From assembly GCA_028687545.1 (NCBI GenBank), contig JAQTZZ010000002.1:139635-203634 (forward strand): 64,000 bases of DNA, written 5' to 3'. The translations under genes and the position numbers were made by a program. Below the pieces are notes generated by a model. The model saw only the letters and a list, made by a program, of their open reading frames with translations. It did no database searches and was not told the origin of the DNA. The stretch is from Candidatus Wallbacteria bacterium. GTDB lineage: Bacteria; Muiribacteriota; JAQTZZ01. This document shows, piece by piece, positions 1-37,856 of the stretch (positions within the stretch are counted from its first letter, which is position 1; every line of letters starts with the position of its first letter).

Positions 1-1989
1 AAGCTGATTCTGGAGAAAGCCCTTTTTTTTTCCGAGTCCGGCGATCAGGCTGAAGCGCTCAGGCTGTATCTGAAACTGGCTGAAAAGGATCAAGCGCAGG
101 CTGGAGAATATCTGGTCAAGGCAGGTAACCTGGCGCTTGGATTGAATCGGGTGAAACTGGCGCTGTCCTGTTACGAGCGTGCCTGTGCCTGTCATGACGA
201 TCAGCTGGTCAATGAAATGCTGGCTTTACTGTATCATAAAACAGGAGATTGCCTTAAATCCAGCCGCCTGTTCCTCGATTTATACAGAAAATACGGAAAT
301 CAGCACTATTTACTGGAATTTTTACGCATCCTCACCCTGAATCAGGAAACAGCGGCCCTGTTCCAGGCTGATTTGACTGATCTGGATAAAAACACTGCTG
401 AAATCGAAGCTCTTTTTCTGCTGTTTACTCTCAACCGATTTCTGAATCGGACTGAAATCTGCTCTCGGATCGCAGACCGGATTTTGCGTGGTGGGGGCAC
501 TTTTCATGCCGGGGAATGCGCCTTGTTTCTGTTCGGGCATTTTTCTGATGCCGGGAATTATGCGGAGGCCCTTAACAGCCTGAAAAAGGGTAAAAAATTC
601 ATCAATCCGGATATTTTTAATTTTCAGGCAGGGGAAATCCTTTGCCAGGCCGGTAAAAAGAGTCAGGCTTTGAAATACTTCAGCCGCCTTGGTGCAGCAG
701 GACTGGAACGGACACTGGCTCTGCTTGAATCGTTAGATAGACATCAGGAAGTGCTGGAGCAATGCCGCAATCTGGATCTGAATCAAAGAAACTGGGGGAT
801 AGTGAAGCTTTATCTCTCGTCCTTGTGGAAAACAGGTAAATATAAGGAAGGCCGGGAATTGCTGAACACAGGTGATTTTGCTAAAAACGAGGAATATTTC
901 CGCCTGAGAGAGGGATTCGTTCTGAAGGTGAAGGAGTGTGATCTCTTTCTAGCGGATTGTTATTACGCTGCAGGGTATTATGCCGCTGCCCTTTTAAAAC
1001 TGAAAAAGGGTAAAAATCTGATGGAGCAAAGGATTTTCAATTATAAAGCCGGGGAAATCCTTGATCAGGCCGGCAAAAAAAGGCAGGCCCTGAAATACTT
1101 TCAAAGGCTGGGAAAGAGCGAACTGGAACGGACACTGGCTCTGCTTGATTCGCTGGGCAGGAATCAGGAAATACTGGAGCAATGCCGCAATCTGGATCTG
1201 AATCAGGAGAATTGGGGTGTGGCGAAACTGTACCTCTCTGCCCTCTGGAAAACCGGCAATTATCGTGAAGGCCTGCAATTACTGAATGGCGACTTTGATA
1301 AAAACAGGGAATATTACAAACTGCAGAATGGATTCATCCAGAAGGTGAAAGAATGCGATTTGCTTTTAGCTGAGTGTTATTTCGCTGCCGGAGATTATGC
1401 TGCAGCCCTCGCAAAATTAAAAAAGGCGAAAACCCTGATGGACCGGAAGATATTCAATTATAAGGCAGGAGAAATCCTGGATCAGGCCGGCAAAAAAAGG
1501 CAGGCCTTGAAATACTTCCGCTGTCTTGGGATGATCGGGCTGGAACGGACACTGATGCTGCTTGATGAACTGGGCAGGGATCAGGAAGTGCTGGAGCAGT
1601 GCCGAGCGCTGGATCTGAATCAAATGAACTGGGGAATCGCGAAATTGTATCTCTCGACTTTATGGAAAACCGGGAATTATCGGGAAGGCCTGCAATTGTT
1701 CCAAAACTGCAATTTCGAAAAAAACAAGGAGTATTACCGGCGGCTGGGGGGATTCGCCCTGGAAACCGGTGAATACGAAACAGCTCTGGAAAGTTATTCC
1801 AGGCTGGAGAGTTCAGCAAAAAACCGGAAAGAAAGCCTGGAATTTCTGGAAACCGAAGGCTACATTCTCAGAAAATTAGGCAGGAGACTGCCGGCCTTGA
1901 AAAAATACCTGCAGCTTTTGAAGTTGCCAGGCCGGAAAATTCAAGCATTGAAAGCCATTCTCTGCACGCTGATTCCTGGGAAAAACTGA
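1..1989 (+). CDS. TPR-repeat C-terminal part of a radical SAM/SPASM–TPR fusion paralog; 5' end lies outside the window
   Basis: Frame 1 is open from base 1 to TGA at 1987-1989. Translation from base 1 (KLILEKALFFSESGD...) aligns with the mid-region of the two downstream paralogs. Three tandem ~140-aa modules (AGNYA.AL..LKKGK...FNY.AGEIL.QAGKK.QALKYF.RLG...LERTLALL.SL.R.QE.LEQCRNLDLNQ.NWG..KLYLS.LWKTG.Y.EG) and the shared tail ...LKAILCTLIPGKN. Confidence 0.75.
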   Translation, partial: KLILEKALFFSESGDQAEALRLYLKLAEKDQAQAGEYLVKAGNLALGLNRVKLALSCYERACACHDDQLVNEMLALLYHKTGDCLKSSRLFLDLYRKYGNQHYLLEFLRILTLNQETAALFQADLTDLDKNTAEIEALFLLFTLNRFLNRTEICSRIADRILRGGGTFHAGECALFLFGHFSDAGNYAEALNSLKKGKKFINPDIFNFQAGEILCQAGKKSQALKYFSRLGAAGLERTLALLESLDRHQEVLEQCRNLDLNQRNWGIVKLYLSSLWKTGKYKEGRELLNTGDFAKNEEYFRLREGFVLKVKECDLFLADCYYAAGYYAAALLKLKKGKNLMEQRIFNYKAGEILDQAGKKRQALKYFQRLGKSELERTLALLDSLGRNQEILEQCRNLDLNQENWGVAKLYLSALWKTGNYREGLQLLNGDFDKNREYYKLQNGFIQKVKECDLLLAECYFAAGDYAAALAKLKKAKTLMDRKIFNYKAGEILDQAGKKRQALKYFRCLGMIGLERTLMLLDELGRDQEVLEQCRALDLNQMNWGIAKLYLSTLWKTGNYREGLQLFQNCNFEKNKEYYRRLGGFALETGEYETALESYSRLESSAKNRKESLEFLETEGYILRKLGRRLPALKKYLQLLKLPGRKIQALKAILCTLIPGKN

Positions 1990-2000
1990 ATCTCGCTGAG

Positions 2001-4640
2001 GTGTGCGTGAACTTAAGAAAAATCGATATCCTCCAGTTTGCAGTCACTGACCGCTGCAACCTGAAATGCATCATGTGCCATCATGGTACGCTTGAGTATC
2101 AGAGGCAGTTGAAAAGTGATTTCAGCCTGGACCTTTTCCGGGGAGTGCTGGACGACATGGCTGGAAACGGCTTCAGTGCAAGGGCGCTCTATTTTTTCTG
2201 GAACGGGGAAGCTTTTCTGCTGCCGGATTTTTTGCCGATGCTCCAGTCTGCTTACAGTCTGAATTCAAGAACCCGGCTGTTCGACGTGGTTTACCTGAAC
2301 ACTAATGCCGGATTGCTCGATCCTGAAAAATCAGATCAGCTGCTTTCCCTTTTGAGCACTGACAAATCTAATGCTTTCTGCGTGCTGAATTTTTCCATAG
2401 ACGCTGTGAATGAGCAGACATACAACTCCATCCGCAGGGGCGGAAATTTCAGGAAAACAGTGGAAAACATCAAGTACCTGGTGAGAAAAGGATCTGAATC
2501 AGGGTTATCCAGCCTCTATTTCATCTTCCAGATCATAGTTCAGCCTGGAAATTTCAGCGAAGTGGGAGATTTTGCAGCTTACTGGAGCGGATTCCTCTCT
2601 GAACTTCAGCTGCCGCATGAAACCGTGGCGCTTATGGATCTGTCGTATTTAGGGATCCAGGAAAAAAAGAAACATCTGATAAACATCAGGCCGCTTCTGT
2701 TGAAAGGTTCCCCTGAATTCGACCGCAAAACAGAGGGAATCTGGAACTACTGGAAAAAAGTCCTGACTGAAGGTGAAAATCCTCCACTTCCGGAACTGCC
2801 GGATGATCGGCATTACATCGTGCCGCTTCCTGAACTGAATCTGGCGGCAAGAGAAAAACTCGCTCCGCAAAGGCGGTTCTTAGGCGGAGATTATCTCCGC
2901 AAAAATCCCTGCCCTTATTTGTTTAAAAATGTGCTGATCAGGCCTGACGGGGAAGTCAGCGTCTGCTGCCGCGACCCGTTTTCCCTTGGCAACCTGAAAA
3001 ACAGCAGATTCTCTGAAATCTGGCTTTCTGCCGAGGCAGACCAGATGCGAAAATTGAGCTTGAATCTGGATTTTGCATCCCTCTCGCCAGGCTGCGTCCA
3101 TTGCAGTGAAAGCGACGAATCTTTCTGGGAGATGCTGCATCTTGCGGAAATCAGCAGTTTTTACCAGGACCATCCGCCTGAGCGGATTGTATCTTTTGTG
3201 AGAACACTTCCTGAAGAGGATCAAAAGCTGATTCTGGAGAAAGCCCTCTTTTTTTCCGAATCCGGAGATCTTCCTGAAGCATATCGCCTGTTTTCAATGC
3301 TTGATGACTCGATGATCAGCTTGTCAGCACGGGCTTATTATGAATTCAAAACCGGGAAAATGGAAGAAGCTGTAAAGGATTATCTGAAACTGCTTCAATA
3401 CCCTGAATTGAAAAACCGCGGTGAAGTCATGCTTTCGCTGGCGATTTTGAAAATCGGGGAACAGAAGAATGAAGAAGGACTCTACTGGCTGGAGCAGGCT
3501 GAAAAAATTATTCCGAAACATCCCTTGGTGATTGAACAAAAAGCATACCTTTTAATGTCTGCTGATCCGCAAAAAGCTCTGGAGTACTTCAATCAGGCAG
3601 GGTCGTTTTTTAAGAATCAGCTTTTAACCCGGGAAAAACAAGATCTCTTTAGTTCTGAGCGAGCTTCCGGATATTATGCAAATGAAAGACATCTGAATGA
3701 GATGCTGGCTTTGTTATACAATAAAACAGGAGATTATCCCAAATCCTGTTGCTGGTTTCTCAGTTTGTACAAGAAATACGGAAACGAACATTATTTGCTT
3801 GAATTTTTACGCATCCTCTCTCTGAATCCGGATACTGCGCCTTTATTCAGGGACGATTTGACTGATCTGGATAAAAATGCCGGTGAAACTGAATCGCTCT
3901 TCCTTCTGTTTACACTCAACCGCTATCTGAACAGGAATGAAATCTGTTTCAGGGTCGCAAACCGGATCCTACGCGAACAACCAGGCACGCTTCCTGCCAG
4001 AGAATGCGCTTTGTTTCTGTCTGGTTATTGTATGGACGCCGGAAACTATGCAATTGCCCTCTCTGGATTGAAAAAGGGAAAAAAACTTATGGATCAGGAG
4101 ACATTTAATTACAAAGCCGGGGAAATTTTAGAAAAGGCAGGGAAAAAGAAGCAGGCCTTAAAGTACTTCATGCGTCTTTCTGAGGACGGTTTGGAACGGA
4201 AGCTGGCTTTGCTTGATTCTCTGGGCAGATCTCAGGAAATACTGGAATTTTGCAGCAGCGTGGATTTGAATCAAAAAAGCTGGGGTGTGATGAAAGTGTT
4301 TCTCTCCTCATTGTGGAAGACAGGAAAATACCAGGAAGGCTTGAAACTGATTAACAATTTTAAATTTGATAAAAATGAAGATTACTATCGGATGCAGGGT
4401 GGATTCGCCCTGGAAGGGGGTGAATATGAAACTGCCCTGAAAAGTTACGCCCTGCTGGAAAATAATACGGAAAACGGAAAGGATCGGCTGGAATTTCTGG
4501 AAACAGAAGCCTACATTCTCAGAAAACTGGGCAGAAAGCTGGAAGCTTTGAAAAAATACCTGCGGCTGCTGAAGTTTCCTGGCAGGCGAATTCATGCATT
4601 GAAAGCCATGCTCTGCACGCTGATCCCGGGGAAAAACTGA
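2001..4640 (+). CDS. radical SAM/SPASM domain protein fused to C-terminal TPR repeats (879 aa)
   Basis: GTG start 11 nt after the upstream stop. N-terminus FAVTDRCNLKCIMCHHG carries a CX3CX2C radical SAM motif, followed by FFWNGEAFL (GGE-like) and NTNAGLL. A Cys-rich SPASM/twitch-like segment follows (NPCPYLF...VCCRDPFSLGNL...SPGCVHCSESDE), then TPR-like repeats and the paralog-conserved C-terminus. Confidence 0.8.
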   Translation: MCVNLRKIDILQFAVTDRCNLKCIMCHHGTLEYQRQLKSDFSLDLFRGVLDDMAGNGFSARALYFFWNGEAFLLPDFLPMLQSAYSLNSRTRLFDVVYLNTNAGLLDPEKSDQLLSLLSTDKSNAFCVLNFSIDAVNEQTYNSIRRGGNFRKTVENIKYLVRKGSESGLSSLYFIFQIIVQPGNFSEVGDFAAYWSGFLSELQLPHETVALMDLSYLGIQEKKKHLINIRPLLLKGSPEFDRKTEGIWNYWKKVLTEGENPPLPELPDDRHYIVPLPELNLAAREKLAPQRRFLGGDYLRKNPCPYLFKNVLIRPDGEVSVCCRDPFSLGNLKNSRFSEIWLSAEADQMRKLSLNLDFASLSPGCVHCSESDESFWEMLHLAEISSFYQDHPPERIVSFVRTLPEEDQKLILEKALFFSESGDLPEAYRLFSMLDDSMISLSARAYYEFKTGKMEEAVKDYLKLLQYPELKNRGEVMLSLAILKIGEQKNEEGLYWLEQAEKIIPKHPLVIEQKAYLLMSADPQKALEYFNQAGSFFKNQLLTREKQDLFSSERASGYYANERHLNEMLALLYNKTGDYPKSCCWFLSLYKKYGNEHYLLEFLRILSLNPDTAPLFRDDLTDLDKNAGETESLFLLFTLNRYLNRNEICFRVANRILREQPGTLPARECALFLSGYCMDAGNYAIALSGLKKGKKLMDQETFNYKAGEILEKAGKKKQALKYFMRLSEDGLERKLALLDSLGRSQEILEFCSSVDLNQKSWGVMKVFLSSLWKTGKYQEGLKLINNFKFDKNEDYYRMQGGFALEGGEYETALKSYALLENNTENGKDRLEFLETEAYILRKLGRKLEALKKYLRLLKFPGRRIHALKAMLCTLIPGKN

Positions 4641-4652
4641 ACACGCGATGAG

Positions 4653-7600
4653 GTGTGCGTGAATTTAAGAGAAATCGAGATTCTTCAGTTTGCAGTCACT
4701 GACCGCTGCAATCTCAAATGCATCATGTGCCATCAAGGCACGCTGGAGTATCAGAAACAGATAAAGCGTGATTTCAGCCTGGACCTTTTCCGGGGAGTGC
4801 TGGACGACATGGCCGGAAACGGCTTCAGTGCAAGGGCGCTTTATTTTTTCTGGAACGGGGAAACGTTTCTGCATCCGGATTTTCTATCAATGCTTCACTA
4901 TGCATACAACCTGAATGCAAAAAACAGGATCTTTGACGTGGCTTATTTGAACACCAATGCAGGGTTGCTGGATCCTGAAAAATCCGATCAGCTGATTTCC
5001 ATCCTGGACAGGAGCGGCTCGAATGTTCTCAGCATCCTGAATTTTTCGATAGACGCAGTGAATGAACAGACTTACAAAGCCATCCGCAGGGGCGGGAATT
5101 TCAGAAAAACAGTGGAAAACATCAAGTATCTGGTCAGGAAAAGATCTGATTCAGGGTTGTCCAGCCTCTATTTTATTTTCCAGATCATAGTGCAGCCCGG
5201 AAATTTCAATGAAGTGGAGGATTTTTCTGCTTACTGGAGCGGATTCCTGTCGGAACTGAAATTACCGCATGAAATTGTAGCGCTTGAGGATCTGTCGTAT
5301 CTGGAAATAAGTGAGAAAAAGAAGCATTTGATTAACATCAGGCCTCTTCTGACCAAGGGAATTCCTGACTTCGACCGCAAAGCAGCTGGAATCTGGAATT
5401 ACTGGAAAAATGTTCTGATCCGAAGAGAGCGGGAAAATCCCCAGCTTCCGGAAATACCGGATGATCGATGTTACATCGTTCCGATTCCAGAACTCAATCT
5501 GGCTGCTTTAGAAAATCAGGCACCGCAAAGGCGATTCCTAGGCGGAACATACCTGCGGAAAAATCCCTGCCCCTACCTATTTAAGACCGCGTTGATCAAA
5601 CCTGACGGAGAGGTTACTGTCTGCTGCCGAGACCCGTTCCACCTGGGGAATCTGAACCAGAACAGATTTTCTGAAATCTGGCTCTCCCCTGATTCTGATA
5701 AAAAGAGAAATCTGAGTTTGAACTTGGACTTTGCCGCACTCTCTCCTGGTTGTGTCCATTGCAGTGATTGTGATGAATCATTCTGGAAAATGCTTTATCT
5801 TCCTGAAATCAGTAATTTTTATCAAAACAATCCTCCTGAGCAAGTTGTTTCCTTTGTAAGAACTCTTCCGGAAAAAGAGCAAAAACTGATCCTGGAGAAA
5901 GCTCTCTTTTTTTCCGAATCCGGTGATATTGCCTTGGCAGATCGCCTGTTTTCAATGCTCGATGATTCGGCGATCAATTTGATCGCCCGTGCCTCTTTTG
6001 AAGTCAAAACAGGGAAAACCGGGGAAGCGGTAAGAGATTATCTGAGACTGCTTGAATATCCTGAGCTGAAAAACCGGGGAGAGATTTTCCTCTCAGTGGC
6101 GATTCTGAAAATCAGGGAACATAAAAATGGTGAAGGTCTGCACTGGTTGGACCAGGCTGAAAATTTGATTCCTGATCACCCAAAATTGATTGAACAAAAA
6201 GCCTATCTTTTAATGTCCGCTGAACCGCAAAAAGCGCTGGAATATTTTCTCAGACTGGCCGCTCTGGCTGATAAATCCGAAAAGATCAGGATTTATCTGA
6301 ACTGTGCTCTACTCTGCTTTAAAACTCAAAATTCCGAGAAAGCCCTGGAATATTTGTGTCAAGCAGAACCGTTTCTTCCGGAAAACATTAGTGCTCCCGA
6401 AGATCTGGCCATCCGGGCATATCTGCTGGAAAAATTTGGAAAAACAGATGATGCGGTCAGGGATTATCTGAAACTGCTTGATTATCCGGATTTGAAAAAC
6501 CGGGGAGAAATAATGCTTTCGCTGGGACTCCTAAAACTCGGGATCCAAAAAAATGATGAGGGGCTGTATTGGCTGAATCAGGCTGAACAATTGATTCCTG
6601 ATCACCCCAAACTGATCGAACAAAAAGCCTATCTTTTGATGTCCGCTGAACCGCAAAAAGCGCTGGAATATTTTCTCAGACTGGCCGCTCTGGCTGATAA
6701 ATCCGAAAAGGGACGGATCTATCTAGCTTCCGCGTTTCTATCACAAAAAATGCGAAACCCTGAGAAAACCCTGGAATATTTGAGACAGGCTGAGCCATTT
6801 CTTCCGGATGAGATTGTTACTGGGGAAGTGCTGACCCAGAAAGCACATTTACTGGAAAATCTGGGAAAAACTGAAGAAGCATTCCAGGCATATCTGAAAT
6901 TAATCGAAAAAAATGGCCCGGCGACAGGAGAACATCAGCTCAAAGCCGGATATCTTGCACTGGAATTGAAAGATGAAAAGCAGGCATTGACCTGCTTTGA
7001 GAGCGCTTCCAGATATTGCACCAATGAATTGAGAATTAACGAAGTTCTGGCTTCCTTATACCGTAAAGAAGGAGATTATTCCAAATCCTGCTGCCTATTT
7101 CTCGGTTTGCATAAAAAATTCGGAAGCGAGCATTATCTGCTGGAATTTTTACGGACCCTCTCCCTGCATCCGGAAGTAGTGCCTTTATTTAGTGATGATT
7201 TGACTGATCTGGATAAAAGTGCCACTGAATCTGAAGCGCTTTTTCTTCTGTTCTCACTCAACCGCTCCCTGAATCGGACTGAAACCTGCTTCAAAATCAC
7301 AGAACGGCTGTTATCTGAAAAGGCCGCCAGTCCATATGAAAAAGAGTGCGCTTTGTTTTCAGCAGAGTATTTTTCAGCAGCCGGCAATTACGCTGCTGCC
7401 CTTTTCAGGCTGAAAAAGGGGAGAAAGCAGATTGATCAGCAGACTTTTAATTATCAGACAGGTGAAATCCTTAATAAAGCAGGCAAAAAGAGACTGGCAC
7501 TTAAATATTTCAGGAAGCTTGGTGAAGCCGGATTGGAACGCACCCTGGCTCTGCTTGATTCCATGGACAGATCTCTGGAAGTGCTGGAACTTTGCCGAAA

Positions 7601-7982
7601 TCTGGAGCTGATTCAAAAGAACTGGGGTAAAGTGAAATTGTATCTCTTGTCTTTATGGAAAACAGGAAAATATCAGGAAGGCATGCAAGTGTTCAATAAT
7701 GGCAATTTTGACAAAAATGAGGAATATTACAGGCTGCAGGGTGGATTTGCGCTTAAAACAGGGGAATCTGAAACGGCCCTGGCAAGTTACGCGATGCTTG
7801 AAAATACGGCAAAAAGCGAGAAAGACAGGTTGGAGTTCCTGGAAACCGAGGGATACATTCTCAGAAAATTGGGCAGGAAGAGAGAGGCCTTGAAAAAATA
7901 TTACCGGATTTTGAAGTCGTCTGGCCGTAAAATTCATGCTCTGAAAGCCATGCTCTGCACGTTTCTTCCAGGGAAAAACTGA
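4653..7982 (+). CDS. radical SAM/SPASM domain protein fused to C-terminal TPR repeats (1109 aa); longest paralog
   Basis: Same architecture as 2001..4640 (CNLKCIMCHQG; WNGETFL; VCCRDPFHLGNL; SPGCVHCSDCDE). The 5' ~110 nt are about 90% identical to the paralog. Extra length comes from inserted TPR modules, including a near-identical internal duplication. Confidence 0.8.
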   Translation: MCVNLREIEILQFAVTDRCNLKCIMCHQGTLEYQKQIKRDFSLDLFRGVLDDMAGNGFSARALYFFWNGETFLHPDFLSMLHYAYNLNAKNRIFDVAYLNTNAGLLDPEKSDQLISILDRSGSNVLSILNFSIDAVNEQTYKAIRRGGNFRKTVENIKYLVRKRSDSGLSSLYFIFQIIVQPGNFNEVEDFSAYWSGFLSELKLPHEIVALEDLSYLEISEKKKHLINIRPLLTKGIPDFDRKAAGIWNYWKNVLIRRERENPQLPEIPDDRCYIVPIPELNLAALENQAPQRRFLGGTYLRKNPCPYLFKTALIKPDGEVTVCCRDPFHLGNLNQNRFSEIWLSPDSDKKRNLSLNLDFAALSPGCVHCSDCDESFWKMLYLPEISNFYQNNPPEQVVSFVRTLPEKEQKLILEKALFFSESGDIALADRLFSMLDDSAINLIARASFEVKTGKTGEAVRDYLRLLEYPELKNRGEIFLSVAILKIREHKNGEGLHWLDQAENLIPDHPKLIEQKAYLLMSAEPQKALEYFLRLAALADKSEKIRIYLNCALLCFKTQNSEKALEYLCQAEPFLPENISAPEDLAIRAYLLEKFGKTDDAVRDYLKLLDYPDLKNRGEIMLSLGLLKLGIQKNDEGLYWLNQAEQLIPDHPKLIEQKAYLLMSAEPQKALEYFLRLAALADKSEKGRIYLASAFLSQKMRNPEKTLEYLRQAEPFLPDEIVTGEVLTQKAHLLENLGKTEEAFQAYLKLIEKNGPATGEHQLKAGYLALELKDEKQALTCFESASRYCTNELRINEVLASLYRKEGDYSKSCCLFLGLHKKFGSEHYLLEFLRTLSLHPEVVPLFSDDLTDLDKSATESEALFLLFSLNRSLNRTETCFKITERLLSEKAASPYEKECALFSAEYFSAAGNYAAALFRLKKGRKQIDQQTFNYQTGEILNKAGKKRLALKYFRKLGEAGLERTLALLDSMDRSLEVLELCRNLELIQKNWGKVKLYLLSLWKTGKYQEGMQVFNNGNFDKNEEYYRLQGGFALKTGESETALASYAMLENTAKSEKDRLEFLETEGYILRKLGRKREALKKYYRILKSSGRKIHALKAMLCTFLPGKN

Positions 7983-7994
7983 AGTTTCTATACC

Positions 7995-8108
7995 ATGTAC
8001 GGTAAATTTTGGTGGTGTGCAGCCGGATGTTTTTCGTGGACAATGATTTGTGGCGGGTCCTGTCTCTGCGTTACCCTTTTCTTTTCTTCGGTGGGCTCAG
8101 AAAATTAA
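7995..8108 (+). CDS. speculative 37-aa Cys/Trp-rich peptide ORF (MYGKFWWCAAGCFSWTMICGGSCLCVTLFFSSVGSEN)
   Basis: ATG at 7995, TAA at 8106-8108, 12 nt downstream of the third rSAM/SPASM–TPR gene. Five Cys and three Trp. No clear Shine-Dalgarno, and the region is GT-rich, which inflates Cys/Trp/Gly codons in this frame. Confidence 0.15.
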   Translation: MYGKFWWCAAGCFSWTMICGGSCLCVTLFFSSVGSEN

Positions 8109-8171
8109 AGGGTAACTCCGGCCACCCCACAAGGTTTCAGAAGAATAAATTGGAAAATTTACCCGCACGAA

Positions 8172-9332
8172 TCACTTTCTCAATATCTCAGCTTCCAGCG
8201 CCTGATATTTCTTCATGTTTTCATAAACAGCCAGATCAAAGCCATCCCAGTCGGGCATCACAACTGACTCCAGCGCTGAAATAAGTTCAGCCGCGTCACT
8301 GATTTTCACTCCGATCCTGAGCCGCTCCAGCAGTTCAGACTCGATTGCGAAATTCCGCATGAACGGCCCGTAAATCACCCGGCAGCCGGCCTGGGCCGGT
8401 TCCAGGATATTGTGGCCTCCCAGATTGAGGAAACTTCCGCCCACAAAGGCAAATTGAGCCCTGCCGTAAAATTCAGCCAGCACTCCCATCCTGTCGATCA
8501 GCAGAAAGTCGCCATACCAGTTTTCCCCTGAGCTTAAAAGTTTGCCTGTAAAACCAAGATTCGACGCGTCTTTCAGCACCTGCCTGCAGCGTTCCACATT
8601 GCGCGGTGCCAGAGCTACCCTGAAGCCCTGCTTCCTGATTTCCCGCAAGGCAGCGAACAGGACTTTTTCATCCTCAAAATGCGTGCTGCCTGCAATCAGC
8701 AGTTTTTCCTTATGCGCCACTTTTACACAGCCTGGCAGGAGCTTGAAATTCACAGGCAGCCGGCAGATGATGCCCGCTTCGTTCAGAAATCTCTGATTAA
8801 GTTCGTCTTTGGGATAGACGTTCCCATTTTTCAGACAGATTCTGTAGAGCGAAAAAAAGCGCAAAAGCTGACGATTTGCGTTAGAGAGGCGCACATTCAG
8901 CCAGAAAAGCGGGATATAGCGTTTCTTTGCAGCCAGCATCAGATTCGGCCACAGGTCCACTTCAGAGACTACTATTTTTCTTGGTTGGACTGTATCAAGC
9001 ATTTTCCCGACTGCAAAGGAGAAGTCCAATGGCGCGAGCATCACTCTGCGCGTCAGGTTTTCCCAGTTTTTCTTCAAGTGAGCAACTAGCTCTGTGTCAG
9101 GAGACAGCACCAGGCAGGAGCTGGCTCGCTCGGCCATCCCTGCAATGTTTCTGAATTCCCCGAAAGAGACAGTAAAAAAAACAACTGGTTTATCAAGTTC
9201 AGGGTAATCCACAAAACCCAGCCAGGACTTGAAATTCGCGAAGCTGATCAATTCCTTGTTGTATAAATAAACCAGAATCAGCGGAGAACAAAGCAGCAGG
9301 AAAAAAAGATAGGCAAGATCAATCAAGGCCAT
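8172..9332 (-). CDS. waaA: 3-deoxy-D-manno-octulosonic acid (Kdo) transferase
   Basis: Translation carries Kdo-transferase motifs (GSTHFEDE, FVGGSFLNLGGHNILEPAQAG) and an N-terminal membrane anchor. Start set at the ATG giving MALIDLAYLFF (cat at 9330-9332), a 14-bp overlap with the upstream acyltransferase gene. Confidence 0.8.
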   Translation of the reverse strand: MALIDLAYLFFLLLCSPLILVYLYNKELISFANFKSWLGFVDYPELDKPVVFFTVSFGEFRNIAGMAERASSCLVLSPDTELVAHLKKNWENLTRRVMLAPLDFSFAVGKMLDTVQPRKIVVSEVDLWPNLMLAAKKRYIPLFWLNVRLSNANRQLLRFFSLYRICLKNGNVYPKDELNQRFLNEAGIICRLPVNFKLLPGCVKVAHKEKLLIAGSTHFEDEKVLFAALREIRKQGFRVALAPRNVERCRQVLKDASNLGFTGKLLSSGENWYGDFLLIDRMGVLAEFYGRAQFAFVGGSFLNLGGHNILEPAQAGCRVIYGPFMRNFAIESELLERLRIGVKISDAAELISALESVVMPDWDGFDLAVYENMKKYQALEAEILRK

Positions 9333-10140
9333 AGGTACGCTTCTTAAATCTGTCGTAAAACAACTGCCACTGTTCAGGCACTTTCCTGACAACCTGGTCG
9401 TAGAATTCAAGGTATCTGCGACTTTGATCCTCAACCGATTCATCCGGATTGGCTGAAGTCAGATTCTCAAGCACAATCCTGTGAAATCCATTTTTTTTCC
9501 GCTTCAGGTAAATTCCCACTACAGGAAGCCCGTATCGCTTTGAGAGCCTGGCAGGCCCTGCCGGGAATGACACATCGCATCCGCACCAGGAGAGCCTGAT
9601 CCCGTTCGGTCCTCCGTCATGGTCTGAGATCAGGCCCAGCACTTCCTTTTTCCTGATCAGCCTGAGAACCCCCAGAATGTTGTCATGGTCGATCAATCTG
9701 ATTCCGACCTTATCCCTGTAACTGTTCAATATTTTCTCCTGCAGTTCGCTTCTGGCGCGCAAGTAGATCGAAGTGAGCGGCAGCCCGTATGCCACCAGAG
9801 CACCTCCCAGCAGTTCCCAGTTTCCCAGATGCATTGAGAGAAAAATCATGGCTTTCCCGCTGCTGCGCGCTTTTTTCACCAGTTCCTGATCGAGCTCGTC
9901 AAAACGCACGATCCGCCTGATCTGATCCGGAAACAGGCTGAAATAAAAAAGTTCAAAGAGCAGCTGCCCCTGCTGTCTGAAAAATTCCCTGACAGTCTTC
10001 TGAAGCTTAAATTCACTGATGTCAGGGAAAAGAGCCCGCAGATTCCGCTCAGGCACCTCGGCCAGGGAGGGGGCGCACCGATAAACAAACAGCCCGATAA
10101 GCCGGGCTGTTGAACTTCCAATCCTGTATAAAAGCATCAC
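9319..10140 (-). CDS. lpxL: lipid A late acyltransferase, LpxL/HtrB (lauroyl/myristoyl acyltransferase) family
   Basis: 273-aa product with the family's size and layout (MHLGNWELLGG; DHDGGPNGIRL). Overlaps the giant gene's stop by 4 bp and waaA's start by 14 bp. The exact paralog (LpxL, LpxM or LpxP) is not resolvable. Confidence 0.7.
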   Translation of the reverse strand: MMLLYRIGSSTARLIGLFVYRCAPSLAEVPERNLRALFPDISEFKLQKTVREFFRQQGQLLFELFYFSLFPDQIRRIVRFDELDQELVKKARSSGKAMIFLSMHLGNWELLGGALVAYGLPLTSIYLRARSELQEKILNSYRDKVGIRLIDHDNILGVLRLIRKKEVLGLISDHDGGPNGIRLSWCGCDVSFPAGPARLSKRYGLPVVGIYLKRKKNGFHRIVLENLTSANPDESVEDQSRRYLEFYDQVVRKVPEQWQLFYDRFKKRTYGLD

Positions 10141-13100
10141 TCTTTTTCAGCTTCCAGGTCTTTCCAGAAGGTGGTATTGACACGCTTGGGCTTGAGCATT
10201 TCCTGCGCTTCCCTGGTGATCTCGCTGTCTACAGGAGCCAGGTTGACGACTACGATGAACTCTGCCACAGCCTCGTCGATCATGCCTTTATCGCGGTAAG
10301 CTTTGCCAAGGTAGAAATGCGCATTGACATTGTTCTCGTCCAGAGCGATGATCCGTTTGTATTCCAGCACAGCGTCGTCCAGTCTGCCCTTCTTCAGATA
10401 GAGGGAAGACAGGCTGAAATGGGCATCCAGGTTGCGGCTGTCCCGGCGCAGGCCCTCTTCCAGCATCTTGGCGGCTTCCTCGAATCTGGAAAGCTCTTTA
10501 TAAACTTCTGCCAGCATGAAATAACCCTGGGCTCCCTCAGGCATCAGGCCGATCACCTTCTGCAGTTCTTCCAGCGCGTAATCGTACAGTTCGCGGTCCA
10601 GATAGATCTGGGCCAGCATGTTATGCGCCTCAGTTTCCTGGGGATTTTCGCGGATAATGTCCTTGTAGGCGGTGATGGCACGGTCGTAAAGCTTCTTGTC
10701 CTTGTAGATCCTGGCGAGCGACAGTCTGGCCTTGAGACTCACAGGCTCCACTTCGATCGCTTTCTTGTAATATGAGATCGCTTCCTCCATCATACCCTTG
10801 CCGACGTAGAGGTCTCCAAGATAGATGTATGGTTCGGCCTTGCCAGGTTCGATCTTGCGGCATTTTTCCAGCACCACGATCGCATTGTCGTTCATCTTGA
10901 GGCGCAGGAAAAGCTTGCCCATTCCCATGTGAATCCTGTAATCCTGCGGCCGCTTTTCCGAGAGCTTCTGATAGATCTGCCTGGCTTTCTCGTCCTCGTT
11001 CAGCCCCTCGTAACATTCCGCCTCTTTCCTCAGCAGTTCCTCGTCGTCCTCCCGCTCCAAGAGCAGCTTCTGGAAATAGCGCAGGGCTTCCTGGAATCTG
11101 TTCTTCTTGAAATAGATGTTGCCGATGATTTCCAGTGATTCCTGGCTGTCCGGGAAATTGCCGAGCACTTCATGCAGGAGAGGCAGGGCGTCATCCAGTT
11201 TGCCGATTCTCACGTAGCAGCGGGCGAGGCGGATCTTCAATTCGTGATCCTGAGAGACTTCCATCGCCTTCTTGATCTCAGCCACAGTTTCCGAAATCAT
11301 GTCCCTGCTGTAGTAGATGTCTGCCAGGAGTTTGTAAGCTTCCACCGAATTCCTGGGGTAATATTCCTTGATCTTGGAAAGCACAGTCACGGATTTCTCG
11401 AAATCACGCAGATGCCAGTATGTTTTACCCATCCAGAGCAGCAGATCAGGGTCTTTTTCCTTCAGCTCCCTGGCTTTTTTAAAATAGTCCAAAGCTCCTT
11501 CTGGATTTTTTTTAGTTGCTTCGATCGTGCCCAGGCGGTAGAAGGCTTCGAAGGAATTGGGGTCGAGATAGAGGAGTTTCTGGTAGAGTTCTTCCGCTTC
11601 CTTGAAGCGTTTCATCGAGAGATAAACCTCTCCCATTTCCCGCAGGAATTCCTGATTATTCATGCGCAGGTGGACAGCCCGCTCGAGACAAGGCAGGGCG
11701 GCCTTGAGGTCACCCCTGCTGCGGTGGATTCTGCCCATTTCGAAATAGGCTTCCACAAAATTGGGGCTGACTTCGATCGCTTTCTGGAAAAGGCGGATGC
11801 TGTCCTCAAGAAGCTTCCGCTCCAGATAAATCATGCCCAGATAATAATATGCTTCGGCCCGGTTGGGGTCATTCAGAACTACCTGTTCCAGATGCTTGAG
11901 CGCCAGGTTGAAATCGTGTTCCTGGTAATAGATTGTCCCCAGCTCGAAGAAGGCGTTGATATCTTCCCCGTTCTTTTCAAGATATTTCTCCAGGTTTTCC
12001 TTGGCTTCCGAAGTTTTACCCATGCCCTTTTCAAGCAGTGCCAGCCTGTAGCGGGTGTCCTTGTAACCTCCGGTCATCTCGATCACTTTCAACAAATTCT
12101 GATACGCCTTATCCGGCTTGCCGAGCTTCTGATATACATAACCTGAGAGGTAATACGCTTCAGGCTCGCCGATCGACAGATTGCGGGCTTTTTCATACTG
12201 CGCGATGGCCTCGTTCAGCATGTGGGCTTTCTCATAAGCAGTTCCCAGAGTGATCCGCAGGTCGTAAGAAGCCTCGTCGAGATAAGTGGCTTTCTCCAGG
12301 TAGGAAATGGCTTCGTCGATCCTGTCGCGCTCGATCAGGATCTTCCCGATGTCGTGCATGGCAGGCTTGAATCTCGGATTGTACTGGATAGCCCGCTCCA
12401 TGTTCCTGGTGGCCGCGTCCAGCATGTTCTGCTGCCAGTAAATGCGGGCCAGCCAGTAATAAGCTTCGGCCGTTTCCGGCCAGCGCTCGATCAGACGCTT
12501 GAAGAGCGACTGGGCGGAATCGTATTTTTTCTTTTCGAAATAGCATTTCGCCAGCAGCAGGTTGGTTTCCCTGTCGTCAGGAGTCAGGCGTGACTGCTCG
12601 TCCAGAAATGGAATGGCATCATCGATCTGGTCCTCTTTCAATCTGAGCTTTGCCAGATACAGATTCACCTGTTCAAAAGCATTGTTTAAAGAGTAAACCT
12701 TGCGGAAGAGGTCGGCGGCTTTATTCAGATCGCCAAGTTTGAAGGAGATCAGCCCGAGTTCGTAATCCACAGTCGGAGTGCTTTCCTTCTCCATCTGCCG
12801 CAATTCCTGAAGCTCGATCTCAGCTTCGCTGAAACGCTCCTTTTCCCGGTAGAGTCTGGCAAGATAGATCCTGACTCTGGGTTCAGCGGGAAGCAGTTCT
12901 TTCAGTTTCTGGAATTTGAACAGCGCGTCCTCGAAATCACCGTTGTAGTAGTGGGCTTCCCCGAGATTCATAAGAATTTCAGGGGTTTCCTTCCTCTCCA
13001 CGACAGCGCGATATTCATGGACAGCTTCTGCATATCGTCCCATCTTGAAATAGACCTGTGCCAGCCTGCTCCTTACCCCGACGTCGTCGGTATTGAAATT

Positions 13101-16100
13101 CAAAGCTCTGCGCAAGGATTCCTTGGCTTTCTCATTTTCGTTCATAGCGATGAAAATTTCCGCTTCGATGGACAGAAGTTCGGCGTCCTTATCACGGGCC
13201 GGAACAGGTTCCAGGGTTTTAAGGGCCTGATGGGTGTTTTCACTAAGCAGATAGGCTCTGGCAAGCAGCTTGCGGCCTTCACAGTCCTGCGGGCAGATCT
13301 TCATGAAACGTTCCAGTTCCAGGATGGAATTGGCGTAATCGCACTTGGCGAAATAGCTCTGCGCAAGCAGCAGGCCGTAACGCGCTTCCCCGGTATTTAC
13401 CATCAGCTTGCGGAAAAGTTCCACGGATGTTTCCAGGTCTCCCCTTGCTCTGGCGATCAGTCCTCCCAGTTCCTCGATCCGCTGCTCTCCGGCTCCCCCT
13501 GCCTTTCCGAGCCATTCGGAGGCCTGCTCGAAATTTCCCTGCTTGTAATTCAGCAGCGAGAGGTAATATTCGGAGCCTGCATCAGGAGATTGAACCAGCA
13601 CAGCTTTGAAATCAACAAGGGCCTGATCGTATTCTCCGTTCTCGAGATGAATTTTCCCGATCTCCAGATTATTCTTGCACTTTTCAAAACAAAGGAGCGC
13701 TTTTTCCCGTTCGTTGCCCGCAAGATACAGCCTGGCAAGTTTTTCGAACATCTCAGGGGGCTTGTCGCCGGGAAAATTTTCCAGCGCTTTGACCGCACCG
13801 GTAAGATTGTTCTGCTCTTCCATGATTTGTGAAAGCATCATCCGCAAGTCCATCTGCACCGGGGATAAGAAGATGGCACGTTCCAGCAGGAATGCCGCCT
13901 TGTCCAGCTTGCCGTCCTCCCGGTAAATCATGGCCAGAAGCTGATAAGGGAGAAAATTGTCAGGTTTGAGCGGGATCACTTTTTCCAGGATCTTCTCGGC
14001 TTCCCGCTTGAGCTTCCTGTCGAAATACGCGGCTGCCAGTTCGGAGAGGAGGGTAAGATTTTCCGGATCCTTATGCCTGGCCTTTTCCAGGATGGAAATG
14101 GCATCACCGGCCCTTTTGTCTTCCCTGAGCATCCGGCCGAGTTCGATGTATGAGTCCAGATAGTTAGGCAGATTCTCGATCAGTTCCTCCAGGATCTTCC
14201 TGGCTTCTTCCCGTTTGCCGGCCAGCTGATAAATCCGGGCCAGATTGTAACGCGCGCTCTCATGATACGGGTTGAGCATCAGGAGCTTTTTCACGGCTTC
14301 TTCTGCCAGGTGATAATGTCCCTGCTCGAAATAGATCCGGCTCATGAACAGCCAGGGATCCTCGCTGGACGGATGATGGCTCAGATATTCCTCGAAATCC
14401 TTCTGCGCCAGCACATGTTTTTTCAGATTGAAATTGATCTTGCCTGAGAGCAGGATATATTCAGGGTTGGGGTCAGGGGTTTCCCTCAAAAATTCCACTT
14501 TTTCCGCCGCTTTTTCGTAATTCCCGGTTTCAAGGTAGCAGACTGTCAGCAGATAACCGACATCTTCTGAAACCCGGTCCAGCTTCTCGGCTTTCTGCAG
14601 GAAGGAAACCGCATCCCCGTGACGCTTCTGATCGATCAGAATCCTGGCTGCATCGAGCAGTACCGCGAGTTTCTCCGGAGCAAGCTCCACCGCCTTATCC
14701 AGGGACTTTCTGGCCAGATCGTGTTTTTCCTGACAGGCCAGCACTCCGCCGAGCATCAGGTAAGCCTGGCTTTCGCGCTTGTCTTTACAGATTTCCCGTA
14801 GAATCTCCTCAGCCTTGGCATGGCTCCCCTTTTTCCAGTATGCATCGGCCAGTACCATGCCTGCGGAATAATTCCCGGGCCAGAGCGGCCGCAGGAGCTC
14901 AATCACCTGGCCGAATTCCTTCCTGGTCAGATAGATTCTCCCGAGAAATTCACGGACTTCAGCGTTTTCGGGCTCGAATTTCAAATATTGCCTGAAGTTC
15001 GCTTCGGCCTGGACGAAATCCTGTTTGTGATAATAAATCCTGCCTGCCTGCAGGAAAGCCTGCTTGAAGCTGGGATTCAGTTCCATCACTTTTTCCATGG
15101 CCAGCAGGGCATCCTGCTCTTTGCCAAGTTTCTGATAGACCTCGCCAATTTCAAAATAGGCCTGATATGAGGAAAAGTCGATCTCGACAGCCCTGTGGAA
15201 CTCGTTCAGAGCCTCTTCAAACAGACCCTGTTCCTTGAGTATTTTTCCCAGGTAAAAGTAAGCGTCAAAAAACTTCGGCTGATGAAGCAGGGCTTTCTGC
15301 AGAAGTTCCTTGGCGTCATTGAGCATTTTCTGTTCCTTGTAGACCATGGCCAGCCCCAGCAGCGCCTGGAAGTTTTCGGGTTCATTGTCCAGAATGGACT
15401 TGAAGAGCAGGTTGGCTTCAGTCACTTCGCCGTTGGCAAGATATGCCTGCCCCAGTTCCAGGTAAGCGCCGAAATCGCTCGGAGTTTGAGAAATTGCCGT
15501 TTTGAACGCTACTATCGCATGAGAAAGCTTGCCGCGCAGCCTGAGTATCTTTCCCAGCAGGTAATGATAACCCGGGACTTTTCGCTCTTCAGGGATTTCC
15601 CTGATGATGCGCTCAGCATCGACGACCCGGCCCAGCTCGAAATATGCCCGGACCAGTTTGAGCTTCAGCTCAGGGCTTTTCAGACCGGAGGGCAGGCCTT
15701 CCAGGAAATCGACCGCCAGCAGGTAGTTGTTCATCTCAATCAGGCAGTCGGCTTTCCGGGAATACACCTCACGGTCGGATGGAGAAATCTTCAGCGCACG
15801 GTCGTAAAGTTTCAAAGCCTCGTCGAACAGTTTCCGCTTCCTGTACGCGCTGCACATGCACAGGTAAGCATCAACGCTTTCAGGCTTGATCTCCAGAAGT
15901 TTCTTCAAAATGGAAATCCCGTCGTCAAAATTGCTGTTCCTGAAAAAGGCTTCAGCCAGCATCAGATGGAATTTCTCATTTTCCCTCTGTATGCTCAGTG
16001 CTTTCCCGAGATATTCGGTGGCCAGTTCCAGCCTGCCTGCGTTCAGGTTCGCTTCACCAAGACAGGCATAAATCTCTGCGTCCCGGTCCTTTTCCTCGAT

Positions 16101-18107
16101 CCTTTCCAGGTATTCGCAGGCGTCCTGCCATTTGGAAAGTTTGAGGCTGATGCTGCCAAGATTCCTCAAGGCTTCCAGGCATTCCGGAGCCTTAGCCAGC
16201 ACGTCCCTGAAACAGGCGTAGCCTCCTTCCAGGTCGTGTTCCTCAAGCAGCAGCTTCCCTTTGAGAAGCAGCGGATTATAATCGTCAGGCTTGAGGGTCA
16301 GGCATTTTTCGATGAAACGTCCGGCCTTGCGGTAATCTTTCTGACTGCCGGAAAGCATTGCCAGAAAATAATAGGCATCCGCATTTTCTTCGATTTCCAG
16401 GATTTTCTTAAGGTACTGTTCCGCCTGCTGAGGCTTTCCGTTCTGAAAGCAGACCTCAGCCAGTTCAGAGAGCAGATTCAGATGCCTGCTCCCGGTATCG
16501 AGCGAGACGGCCTTTTCCAGGTAATAGATCGTTTCCTCGATCAAACCCCTCTCACGGGAAATCTTTCCGAGGTAATAATAAATCTCATTCTGGTAGGGAT
16601 TGAGTTCAGCCACTTTCTTGAATTCCAGAAAGGCTTTTTCCAGGTCTTTCTGCTCAAAATAAGCCTTGGCGAGATAGAAATGCAGCCTTTCATTGAAGGG
16701 TTCATATTCAAGGGCTTTCAGCCACTCGCGGGTTGCTTCGCCGGTCTTTCCCTGTTCGTAGAAAGAGAGCCCCAGCTCGAAATAACTGCGGAAACTGTCC
16801 AGCCCCATGTTTTCCAGAATCGAGGAGGCTTTCTCGCGCACGAGCTGGGATTTGTCCTTGAGTGCTCCGATGAGAGCTTCGGTGGCTTCGCTGCTGCCTA
16901 TCCCGGCCAGGGCTTCCACAACCGCCACCCTTACTTCTTCCTGCGGATCAGACAGATATTTCATCAATTCAGGTACTGCTTCCTTATACCCCATGAATTT
17001 GATCGTGTTGATAGTTTCCACCCTGATGAAAGGTGAAGGTGATGACATTGTATTCAGGAGCAGCCGATAGATTTCTTCGCAGGGAAAATTCCGGAGAGCC
17101 TGGAGTGCGACTTTTTTCAGCTCCAGGTCATCGCTTTCCAGGGCAGAAATGAAGATGCCCTTGCTCTTCTCGTCCCCGATTTTGATCAGGGCGCTCAGGA
17201 TTTCCTTCTTCACTTCCCGATGGGTATCGTTGAATGCGTTGATCAGTGCTTCCTGTGTGGTTTCCAGGCCGAGCCGTTCCAATGCCCGGGCTGCATTCCT
17301 CCTGACTTCCCACTGGTGGTCTGCAAGGGCTTTGACCAGGTTGGGGGCAGACTTTTCGTCTGACAGTTCACCCATCGCCCAGACGCAGTTTTTCCGCACA
17401 TCAGGGTTGGAGTCCTCCATAGCTCGGATCAGAGCGTCGACAGCTGAGGAATTGCCAACTCTACCCAAGGCACGGGCTGCCAGAGAACGCACTTTACCGT
17501 TCTGGTCCTTGAGGGATTCCAGGATCGCCGGAATCGCCCGCTCGTCTCCGAGCTGAAAGAGCATTTCCAGAGCCTTGCTCCGAAGCTGCGGGGCCGGATC
17601 ATTCAAGGCGGCGATCAATGCATCGATTGAGCGCTTGTCATGGAAGACTTCCAGAGCTTCCAGCACCTGGCCTCTGACTTCCCGGTTCTCATCCGACATG
17701 ATCTGCAGCAATGGTTCCAGAGCCCGTTCGTCGCCAATGTTCTTCAGGGCATCGATTGCAGTTTTGCGTACATCGCTGTTCTGGTCTCTGAGCATCGGCA
17801 GCATGCATTCGACGCTGCCCTTGTTCCTGAATTCTCCCAGAGCCCTCGTGGCTATGATCCGGATTTCTTTGTTATTCTCCCGGAGAAGCTGCTCCAGAAC
17901 CGGTATGATTCTGGTGTCTTTCAGTTCCAGAAAAATCTCCACCACCCTGACTACAACCTGCTGGTTGAGGGTTGGGAGCAGCCTTTTAATGTCTTCGAAA
18001 TAGTCCAGCAGCCTGTTCTTGCGAATTAATTCCAAGGCTTCGAGTTTATCCAGCAGGGACGGACTTTCTAAACCCTTGATAATCTTTTCTTGTTCAGCAC
18101 TTTTCAT
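10137..18107 (-). CDS. giant (2656 aa) HEAT-repeat plus TPR-repeat protein
   Basis: Uninterrupted ORF. N-terminal ~450 aa are PBS-lyase-type HEAT repeats (DVRKTAIDALKNIGDERALEPL; NREVRGQVLEALE...). The rest is dozens of 34-aa TPR-like units (A.YYLG..Y...G....A...F.KA.E.DP). GGGGGA Shine-Dalgarno before the ATG at 18107. Confidence 0.85.
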   Translation of the reverse strand: MKSAEQEKIIKGLESPSLLDKLEALELIRKNRLLDYFEDIKRLLPTLNQQVVVRVVEIFLELKDTRIIPVLEQLLRENNKEIRIIATRALGEFRNKGSVECMLPMLRDQNSDVRKTAIDALKNIGDERALEPLLQIMSDENREVRGQVLEALEVFHDKRSIDALIAALNDPAPQLRSKALEMLFQLGDERAIPAILESLKDQNGKVRSLAARALGRVGNSSAVDALIRAMEDSNPDVRKNCVWAMGELSDEKSAPNLVKALADHQWEVRRNAARALERLGLETTQEALINAFNDTHREVKKEILSALIKIGDEKSKGIFISALESDDLELKKVALQALRNFPCEEIYRLLLNTMSSPSPFIRVETINTIKFMGYKEAVPELMKYLSDPQEEVRVAVVEALAGIGSSEATEALIGALKDKSQLVREKASSILENMGLDSFRSYFELGLSFYEQGKTGEATREWLKALEYEPFNERLHFYLAKAYFEQKDLEKAFLEFKKVAELNPYQNEIYYYLGKISRERGLIEETIYYLEKAVSLDTGSRHLNLLSELAEVCFQNGKPQQAEQYLKKILEIEENADAYYFLAMLSGSQKDYRKAGRFIEKCLTLKPDDYNPLLLKGKLLLEEHDLEGGYACFRDVLAKAPECLEALRNLGSISLKLSKWQDACEYLERIEEKDRDAEIYACLGEANLNAGRLELATEYLGKALSIQRENEKFHLMLAEAFFRNSNFDDGISILKKLLEIKPESVDAYLCMCSAYRKRKLFDEALKLYDRALKISPSDREVYSRKADCLIEMNNYLLAVDFLEGLPSGLKSPELKLKLVRAYFELGRVVDAERIIREIPEERKVPGYHYLLGKILRLRGKLSHAIVAFKTAISQTPSDFGAYLELGQAYLANGEVTEANLLFKSILDNEPENFQALLGLAMVYKEQKMLNDAKELLQKALLHQPKFFDAYFYLGKILKEQGLFEEALNEFHRAVEIDFSSYQAYFEIGEVYQKLGKEQDALLAMEKVMELNPSFKQAFLQAGRIYYHKQDFVQAEANFRQYLKFEPENAEVREFLGRIYLTRKEFGQVIELLRPLWPGNYSAGMVLADAYWKKGSHAKAEEILREICKDKRESQAYLMLGGVLACQEKHDLARKSLDKAVELAPEKLAVLLDAARILIDQKRHGDAVSFLQKAEKLDRVSEDVGYLLTVCYLETGNYEKAAEKVEFLRETPDPNPEYILLSGKINFNLKKHVLAQKDFEEYLSHHPSSEDPWLFMSRIYFEQGHYHLAEEAVKKLLMLNPYHESARYNLARIYQLAGKREEARKILEELIENLPNYLDSYIELGRMLREDKRAGDAISILEKARHKDPENLTLLSELAAAYFDRKLKREAEKILEKVIPLKPDNFLPYQLLAMIYREDGKLDKAAFLLERAIFLSPVQMDLRMMLSQIMEEQNNLTGAVKALENFPGDKPPEMFEKLARLYLAGNEREKALLCFEKCKNNLEIGKIHLENGEYDQALVDFKAVLVQSPDAGSEYYLSLLNYKQGNFEQASEWLGKAGGAGEQRIEELGGLIARARGDLETSVELFRKLMVNTGEARYGLLLAQSYFAKCDYANSILELERFMKICPQDCEGRKLLARAYLLSENTHQALKTLEPVPARDKDAELLSIEAEIFIAMNENEKAKESLRRALNFNTDDVGVRSRLAQVYFKMGRYAEAVHEYRAVVERKETPEILMNLGEAHYYNGDFEDALFKFQKLKELLPAEPRVRIYLARLYREKERFSEAEIELQELRQMEKESTPTVDYELGLISFKLGDLNKAADLFRKVYSLNNAFEQVNLYLAKLRLKEDQIDDAIPFLDEQSRLTPDDRETNLLLAKCYFEKKKYDSAQSLFKRLIERWPETAEAYYWLARIYWQQNMLDAATRNMERAIQYNPRFKPAMHDIGKILIERDRIDEAISYLEKATYLDEASYDLRITLGTAYEKAHMLNEAIAQYEKARNLSIGEPEAYYLSGYVYQKLGKPDKAYQNLLKVIEMTGGYKDTRYRLALLEKGMGKTSEAKENLEKYLEKNGEDINAFFELGTIYYQEHDFNLALKHLEQVVLNDPNRAEAYYYLGMIYLERKLLEDSIRLFQKAIEVSPNFVEAYFEMGRIHRSRGDLKAALPCLERAVHLRMNNQEFLREMGEVYLSMKRFKEAEELYQKLLYLDPNSFEAFYRLGTIEATKKNPEGALDYFKKARELKEKDPDLLLWMGKTYWHLRDFEKSVTVLSKIKEYYPRNSVEAYKLLADIYYSRDMISETVAEIKKAMEVSQDHELKIRLARCYVRIGKLDDALPLLHEVLGNFPDSQESLEIIGNIYFKKNRFQEALRYFQKLLLEREDDEELLRKEAECYEGLNEDEKARQIYQKLSEKRPQDYRIHMGMGKLFLRLKMNDNAIVVLEKCRKIEPGKAEPYIYLGDLYVGKGMMEEAISYYKKAIEVEPVSLKARLSLARIYKDKKLYDRAITAYKDIIRENPQETEAHNMLAQIYLDRELYDYALEELQKVIGLMPEGAQGYFMLAEVYKELSRFEEAAKMLEEGLRRDSRNLDAHFSLSSLYLKKGRLDDAVLEYKRIIALDENNVNAHFYLGKAYRDKGMIDEAVAEFIVVVNLAPVDSEITREAQEMLKPKRVNTTFWKDLEAEKE

Positions 18108-37855: not shown

Positions 37856-37856
37856 C

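Follow-up and report, generated by a model that had tools for sequence, protein, structure and literature searches.

Tandem repeats of genes coding repeat proteins (TPR, ankyrin, LRR and bacterial surface proteins) undergo concerted evolution via unequal recombination and short-tract conversion. The standard signature of gene conversion is the combination of adjacent segments with conflicting groupings and an island at the synonymous sites. The locus described here lies in a 64,000-nt stretch of DNA, hereafter the window, from a metagenome-assembled genome (MAG) of Candidatus Wallbacteria. Its third and longest gene, g3, resembles the repeat-protein cases in carrying an in-frame duplication of several repeats, an island of low synonymous divergence inside older copies, and adjacent segments whose groupings conflict. 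It departs from concerted repeat evolution as generally known in that it concerns two copies, one tract and a single MAG.

The solved structure closest to the catalytic half of the g3 protein is BtrN (PDB 4m7s/4m7t), a dehydrogenase of the radical-SAM type whose auxiliary cluster is carried by a "twitch" domain. Unlike g3, BtrN has only 250–270 residues and is devoid of a TPR tail. An architecture similar to that of the proteins coded by g1, g2 and g3, with a radical-SAM and a SPASM-like domain followed by a helical-repeat tail, is found in the uncharacterised metagenomic proteins P0005, P0004, P0007, P0009 and P0089 (550–880 aa). By eye, motifs similar to those of the R module (defined below) and of the C-terminal tail can be recognised in P0007, P0009 and P0089. 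These five proteins differ from the trio because they are encoded by single genes rather than by a tandem array, lack the M module, do not exceed 44% identity and are found in different genomic contexts.

The organisation of g3 is best accounted for by an old duplication of the M module, followed later by a short gene-conversion tract (72–120 nt) that covers exactly one helix-turn-helix hairpin. We attribute to this reading a probability of about 0.75. What is seen here is the ordinary evolution of a repeat protein, within a gene trio that is uncharacterised and lineage-restricted.

The gene trio and its catalytic half

The three paralogous genes are arranged head-to-tail on the + strand, with stop-to-start gaps of 11–12 nt between the listed ORFs. 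The window holds only the 3' part of g1 (1..1989), whose full protein has 1068 aa (P0002, MDD2714555.1). It is followed by g2 (2001..4640; an 879-aa ORF annotated as 877 aa, P0003, MDD2714556.1) and by g3 (4653..7982; a 1109-aa ORF annotated as 1107 aa, P0001, MDD2714557.1), whose reading frame is intact over 1109 codons with no internal stop. The accessions are consecutive (MDD2714555.1–57.1), each protein forms a singleton cluster, and the only annotation is "SPASM domain-containing protein". In all three proteins the Pfam gathering thresholds are exceeded by an amino-terminal radical-SAM domain and by a domain of the SPASM type, and the long carboxyl-terminal tail gives TPR matches. Scans of positions 1–10200 for promoters and terminators gave counts not above those of shuffled sequence.

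In g3 the Radical_SAM domain of Pfam spans aa 15–171 (nt 4695–5165, + strand) and carries the cluster-binding motif CxxxCxxC as CNLKCIMC at aa 19–26 (C19, C23, C26). The SPASM/twitch-like domain is found at aa 306–373 (nt 5568–5771, + strand). The scores for PF04055 (48.6 bits in g3 and 38.0 bits in g2, cut-off 29.5) place both proteins in the radical SAM superfamily, and those for PF13186 (38.7 bits in g3 and 42.2 bits in g2, cut-off 21.5) assign them a SPASM/twitch domain. The seven cysteines of the SPASM motif, which binds two auxiliary clusters, were not found in this region: counted by eye, it holds five cysteines in g1, five in g2 and six in g3. Of the auxiliary cysteines, the relatives conserve only four (C306, C324, C367 and C370). 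This pattern presumably corresponds to a one-cluster twitch domain and not to the seven-cysteine SPASM arrangement.

No named subfamily claims these proteins. The 22 matches to named radical-SAM subfamilies of NCBIfam all scored far under their cut-offs, the best being TIGR04317 with 62.8 bits versus 380; the subfamilies considered were TIGR04317 (W_rSAM_matur), TIGR04321 (spiroSPASM), NF033640 (N_Twi_rSAM), the sactipeptide/RiPP maturases and MoaA. A single-sequence search of the catalytic half against PDB chains yielded no match. A profile built from the amino-terminal domain and its relatives ranked BtrN first among the solved structures, with a match that extends over the auxiliary-cluster region (E = 1.3e-19); CteB and MoaA came next. 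Given the four conserved auxiliary cysteines and the one-cluster BtrN as best solved match, the domain in the catalytic half of g3 (4653–5882), and likewise in that of g2 (2001–3224), may be twitch-like rather than a two-cluster SPASM domain. The catalytic half as a whole looks, from its sequence, like that of a radical-SAM enzyme with an apparent single auxiliary cluster.

The helical-repeat tail and its modules

In the AlphaFold model the tail of g3 is all-helical and TPR-like from about aa 407, with regular hairpins over aa 407–1104. The pLDDT is 70–83 over aa 407–786. The catalytic half is poorly modelled (pLDDT often below 50) and the full-length model has a pTM of 0.34. Taken as a whole the tail scores as TPR at aa 685–763, where TPR_8 (28.1, cut-off 25.7), TPR_14 (27.1, cut-off 23.5) and NatA_aux_su (43.2, cut-off 33.3) are all above threshold, and the designed TPR protein 5fzq gives a weak match to aa 587–701 (E = 0.0011). 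Helical-repeat scaffolds of this kind usually bind proteins or peptides, and the g3 tail would likewise bind a protein or peptide partner.

Five parts recur in the proteins of all three paralogs: the catalytic half, a linker (KLILEKALFFSESGD...), a shared helical section, a module of about 140 aa named R, and the tail. A further module, M, distinguishes them. In g3 it is present twice in tandem, as copy A (6012..6437, aa 454–595) and copy B (6438..6863, aa 596–737), each of 142 codons on the + strand. Each unit is predicted in the AlphaFold model to fold into eight helices that make up four TPR-like hairpins of about 35 residues. The matches within the M modules (aa 454–737) are all below threshold, namely TPR_15 at aa 470–603 (20.3 versus 26.2) and TPR_12 at aa 524–573 (18.5 versus 30.1), and "TPR-like" is the safe term for this module.

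The three paralogs differ in module copy number. The M module is absent from g1, reduced to about 0.55 copy in g2 (about 79 residues from position 3354) and present in two copies in g3. The R module occurs three times in g1 (454–873, 874–1290 and 1291–1710), once in g2 (3942–4361) and once in g3 (7284–7703), all on the + strand. The R2 and R3 units of g1 are 77% identical at the nucleotide level and the remaining R pairs 64–71%; Tandem Repeats Finder reports 2.4 copies with a period of 417 in g1 (702–1697). With the R triplication of g1 (454..1710), the array contains a second module expansion, independent of the first. The view of the original prediction that the same modular expansion operates between the genes thus holds.

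The near-identical patch

Tandem Repeats Finder delimits in g3 a repeat at 6006–6871 with a period of 426, 2.0 copies and 77% matches, while a gapless repeat finder pairs 6012–6298 with 6438–6724 at 83%. Over their full 426 nt, units A and B are 76% identical. The similarity is concentrated in a patch of 120 nt, found at 6165..6284 (aa 505–544) and again at 6591..6710 (aa 647–686), both on the + strand. In the AlphaFold model it corresponds to the third hairpin of each module (helices 510–520 and 525–538 in A, 652–662 and 667–680 in B). The offset between the copies is 426 nt, or 142 codons, which keeps the frame of ORF 4653–7982, and both copies are translated in that frame to LIPDHPKLIEQKAYLLMSAEPQKALEYFLRLAALADKSEK. 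They differ at exactly four positions (6182, 6186, 6191 and 6212), all synonymous, and are 97% identical. The identical core (6213..6284, equal to 6639–6710, + strand) is 72 nt long and defines the minimal conversion tract. It is the longest exact repeat of the three-gene array and the second longest of the 64-kb window, after an unrelated 176-nt repeat. An identical run of 72 bases was not obtained in any of 20,000 permutations of the differences over the unit alignment. Identity falls to about 60% when either g3 copy is compared with the g2 counterpart of the patch (3507–3626).

The original prediction described two segments with about four differences, one common peptide and identity over the last 65 nt or so, inside an in-frame duplication of a TPR module of about 426 bp in the longest paralog. 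The differences number four as announced, the peptide is the same in both copies, and the duplication is borne out as a 142-aa, TPR-like unit of period 426; the identical stretch exists but is slightly longer than had been stated (72 nt).

Divergence of the two units and age of the duplication

Divergence between A and B is very uneven along the unit. With Nei-Gojobori counts made per segment, pS is 0.545 in the left flank (6012–6164; 19/34.8, dS about 1.0), 0.148 in the patch (6165–6284; 4/27) and 0.636 in the right flank (6285–6437; 23/36.2, dS about 1.4). Third codon positions differ at 24 of 51 codons in the left flank and 27 of 51 in the right flank; in the patch they differ at 3 of 16 codons over 6165–6212 and at none of the 24 codons over 6213–6284. 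Amino acid identity is 34/51, 40/40 and 28/51 in the left flank, patch and right flank, respectively. The low synonymous divergence that marks a conversion tract is found here: third-position differences amount to 3/40 in the patch versus 51/102 in the flanks (Fisher P = 8.6e-7). A 40-codon window with three or fewer such differences has a permutation P of 3e-5 as a scan statistic, and for the core the absence of any difference in 24 codons has a binomial P of 6e-8 at the flank rate of 0.5. As calibration, g2 and g3 were compared in 40-codon windows over the whole gene; the pS values lie between 0.25 and 0.99 and are in every window above that of the patch.

The conflict between adjacent segments, the other mark of conversion, emerges when the g2 homologue of the first ~79 M-module residues (3354..3590, + strand) is used as outgroup. 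Identities in the left flank are 73.9% for A–B, 77.8% for A–g2 and 75.8% for B–g2, and the informative sites are distributed as a star (12 grouping A with B, 18 A with g2 and 15 B with g2). Where the patch is alignable with g2, the same counts are 17, 2 and 1.

The pS of the flanks lies within the g2–g3 range, so that the M units outside the patch appear to be as old as the gene split; on these sequences the M-module duplication is old, about the age of the gene family or of the g2–g3 divergence. The near-identity of the patch does not date the duplication because the units around it have diverged as much as g2 has from g3. The original prediction had called the duplication recent, and this is the point at which it fails: flank pS values of 0.55 and 0.64 are those of paralogous genes, and A, B and the g2 copy are equidistant in the left flank. 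It had also stated that the longest paralog has grown. The duplication in g3 stands, while the star-like relation fits growth of g3 or shrinkage of g2 and g1, being compatible with an ancestor that already held two modules. For annotation, the consequence is that the duplication is dated by the synonymous divergence of its flanks and not by the near-identity inside the repeat.

Origin of the patch

What has to be explained is that the module is duplicated, and in frame, that the two copies have diverged unevenly along their length, and that adjacent segments group in conflicting ways. In the two-step account preferred here, a 426-bp block coding four TPR-like hairpins was duplicated in tandem and in frame, giving rise to the two M modules of g3 and making the helical-repeat tail of the radical-SAM enzyme longer by eight helices. 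This would have happened about when the three paralogs diverged, or earlier; if earlier, g2 would later have lost part of its M module and g1 would have lost M or never had it. Much later, a short non-reciprocal recombination between the direct repeats 426 bp apart would have overwritten 72–120 bp of one copy, by intragenic gene conversion or template switching, erasing amino acid and synonymous differences over exactly one hairpin.

All four differences of the patch are in its first 48 nt, which is unlikely if one 120-nt tract was converted and then mutated at random ((48/120)^4, about 0.03). The most recent tract may have had only 72–93 nt, or two events may have occurred. The left part of the patch may derive from an older event, from patchy repair or from ordinary constraint; its 48 nt have 3/16 third-position differences (P = 0.01), a deficit that could partly reflect such constraint.

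Among the alternatives, an artefact of short-read assembly or polishing survives best and is nonetheless improbable. It supposes that similar stretches were merged in the MAG through bubble popping or repeat-node collapse, or that the true copy number differs from two. The source is indeed a metagenome-assembled genome, and an exact repeat of 72 nt exceeds the k-mer sizes of some assemblers. However, the patch is flanked on both sides by sequence that differs between the two copies, and the sequence at the A/B junction (6437/6438) is itself unique; a linear path using each unique segment once would therefore have to follow the assembled order. The four differences kept inside the patch speak against simple merging over 120 nt, and the reading frame is intact across 1109 codons. 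In addition, assemblers merge only paths that are nearly identical, and the near-identity would remain real even if merging had occurred. The concern voiced in the original prediction, that the region is prone to assembly collapse, can be divided accordingly: collapse to a single copy is contradicted by the different flanks and the unique junction, which place both units side by side, while homogenisation of two already very similar stretches by the assembler or polisher is improbable. The two units can be told apart everywhere except in the 72-nt core, and ordinary 150-nt reads can span it and confirm the structure.

Strong selection on the hairpin, acting without recombination on the protein or on a nucleotide element (RNA structure or regulatory site), is quite improbable. 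It would fit the identity of all 40 residues, the synonymous nature of all four differences, and the fair conservation in g2 of the amino-terminal half of the patch peptide, where IEQKAYLLMSA[D/E]PQKALEYF is kept. Selection at the protein level leaves synonymous sites free, yet the core has 0/24 third-position differences against about 50% in the flanks. Moreover, the peptide coded by g2 is almost unchanged over the first 28 residues, yet 17 sites at which A and B agree and differ from g2 are found within 84 nt. The many base differences with which g2 encodes this peptide imply that the nucleotide sequence is not fixed across the family. A predicted RNA fold is not stable on either strand (z = 0.69, -0.52 and -0.07) and the window has no Rfam matches, which speaks against an RNA-level cause of the patch.

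The view taken by the original prediction, a recent duplication of the whole 426-bp module with the 120-nt identity as its remnant, is very improbable: the period of exactly 426 nt, in frame, and the 97% identical patch speak for it, but it predicts low synonymous divergence everywhere and not in one 40-codon island, whereas about half of the third positions, and 17–23 of 51 amino acids, differ in each flank, a divergence equal to that of g2 and g3, and A and B are not mutual closest relatives in the left flank.

Through the 72-nt perfect direct repeats, 426 bp apart, a module could plausibly be lost or gained in frame within the population.

Relatives of the trio

For biology, the host genes, a tandem radical-SAM trio with helical-repeat tails and no close public relatives, are of more interest than the duplication, and they pose a separate question. 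A peptide-pattern scan of GTDB genomes for g3 orthologues found none. A word-indexed search of 5.8 billion proteins retrieved only the three paralogs and one protein of 28% identity, and an exhaustive search with phmmer over 1.84 billion representatives placed P0005 closest among outsiders, with 44% identity limited to the catalytic half. A few proteins at about 25–31% identity share the overall architecture of the proteins coded by g1–g3. Scanning metagenome and genome contigs for the patch peptide as degenerate DNA produced no match, and a profile-based metagenome scan recovered only distant radical-SAM genes of 35% identity or less. The peptide EQKAYLLMSA[ED]PQKALEYF is absent from all collections scanned. 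A literature search combining radical SAM, SPASM and tetratricopeptide found nothing relevant.

The gene contexts of six relatives are heterogeneous. Glycosyltransferase genes are found near two of five distant-relative loci and, when this window is included, near 3/6 of the places examined, a frequency too weak to serve as a functional clue. At two loci (L001, 3892–8914, and L084, 6810–12271) distant relatives with the radical-SAM/helical-repeat architecture adjoin genes for Ser/Thr protein kinases. The L001 kinase is fused to TPR repeats and the end of its coding sequence overlaps the start of the radical-SAM gene. The adjacency at these two loci may reflect a functional link.

Neighbourhood and possible function

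The trio adjoins genes for homologues of Kdo transferase and lipid A acyltransferase as well as for a TPR protein of 2656 aa. The latter is coded by a single ORF on the - strand (10137–18107) and consists almost entirely of TPR; it gives many TPR-family matches in NCBIfam, among them PEP_TPR_lipo (759 bits) and MamA-like repeats in 15 stretches. This ORF lies directly beside the genes of the lipid A acyltransferase and Kdo transferase homologues (8172–10140, - strand), near the radical-SAM/TPR trio.

A broader reading of the trio can be formulated, although we regard it as a long shot. The three genes would represent a lineage-specific, undescribed family of twitch-type radical-SAM enzymes in which the number and kind of modules (M ×0, ×0.55 and ×2; R ×3, ×1 and ×1 in g1, g2 and g3) set the protein or envelope-glycan substrate, and the homogenised hairpin would be kept because identical hairpins contact a repeated or dimeric ligand. 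If this were true, a role in cell-envelope biosynthesis would be suggested by the Kdo, lipid A and TPR neighbours and by the glycosyltransferase genes found close to two of the distant relatives.

Other features of the window

A candidate for a second conversion tract, between g2 (2116–2188) and g3 (4768–4840) in the radical-SAM domain (73 nt with one mismatch), was rejected on a permutation P of 0.07 versus the lower local background divergence.

The longest exact repeat of the window is a perfect direct repeat of 176 nt (52182–52357 and 60035–60210) whose copies are 7.85 kb apart. The first copy is found just downstream of an S41 peptidase gene (50557–52182), and the second forms the 3' end of a gene on the - strand coding a 682-aa DUF3857 protein (60039–62087). 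Similarity ends abruptly on both sides, and the repeat looks like a duplicated gene fragment.

Another radical-SAM protein is encoded on the - strand at 36176–37855. Every match that it gives is to a B12-binding radical-SAM family and scores well under the cut-off. Its gene adjoins one coding a protein of the asparagine-synthase family (37857–39503, - strand), and the two (36176–39503) may form a small modification cassette unrelated to the patch of g3.
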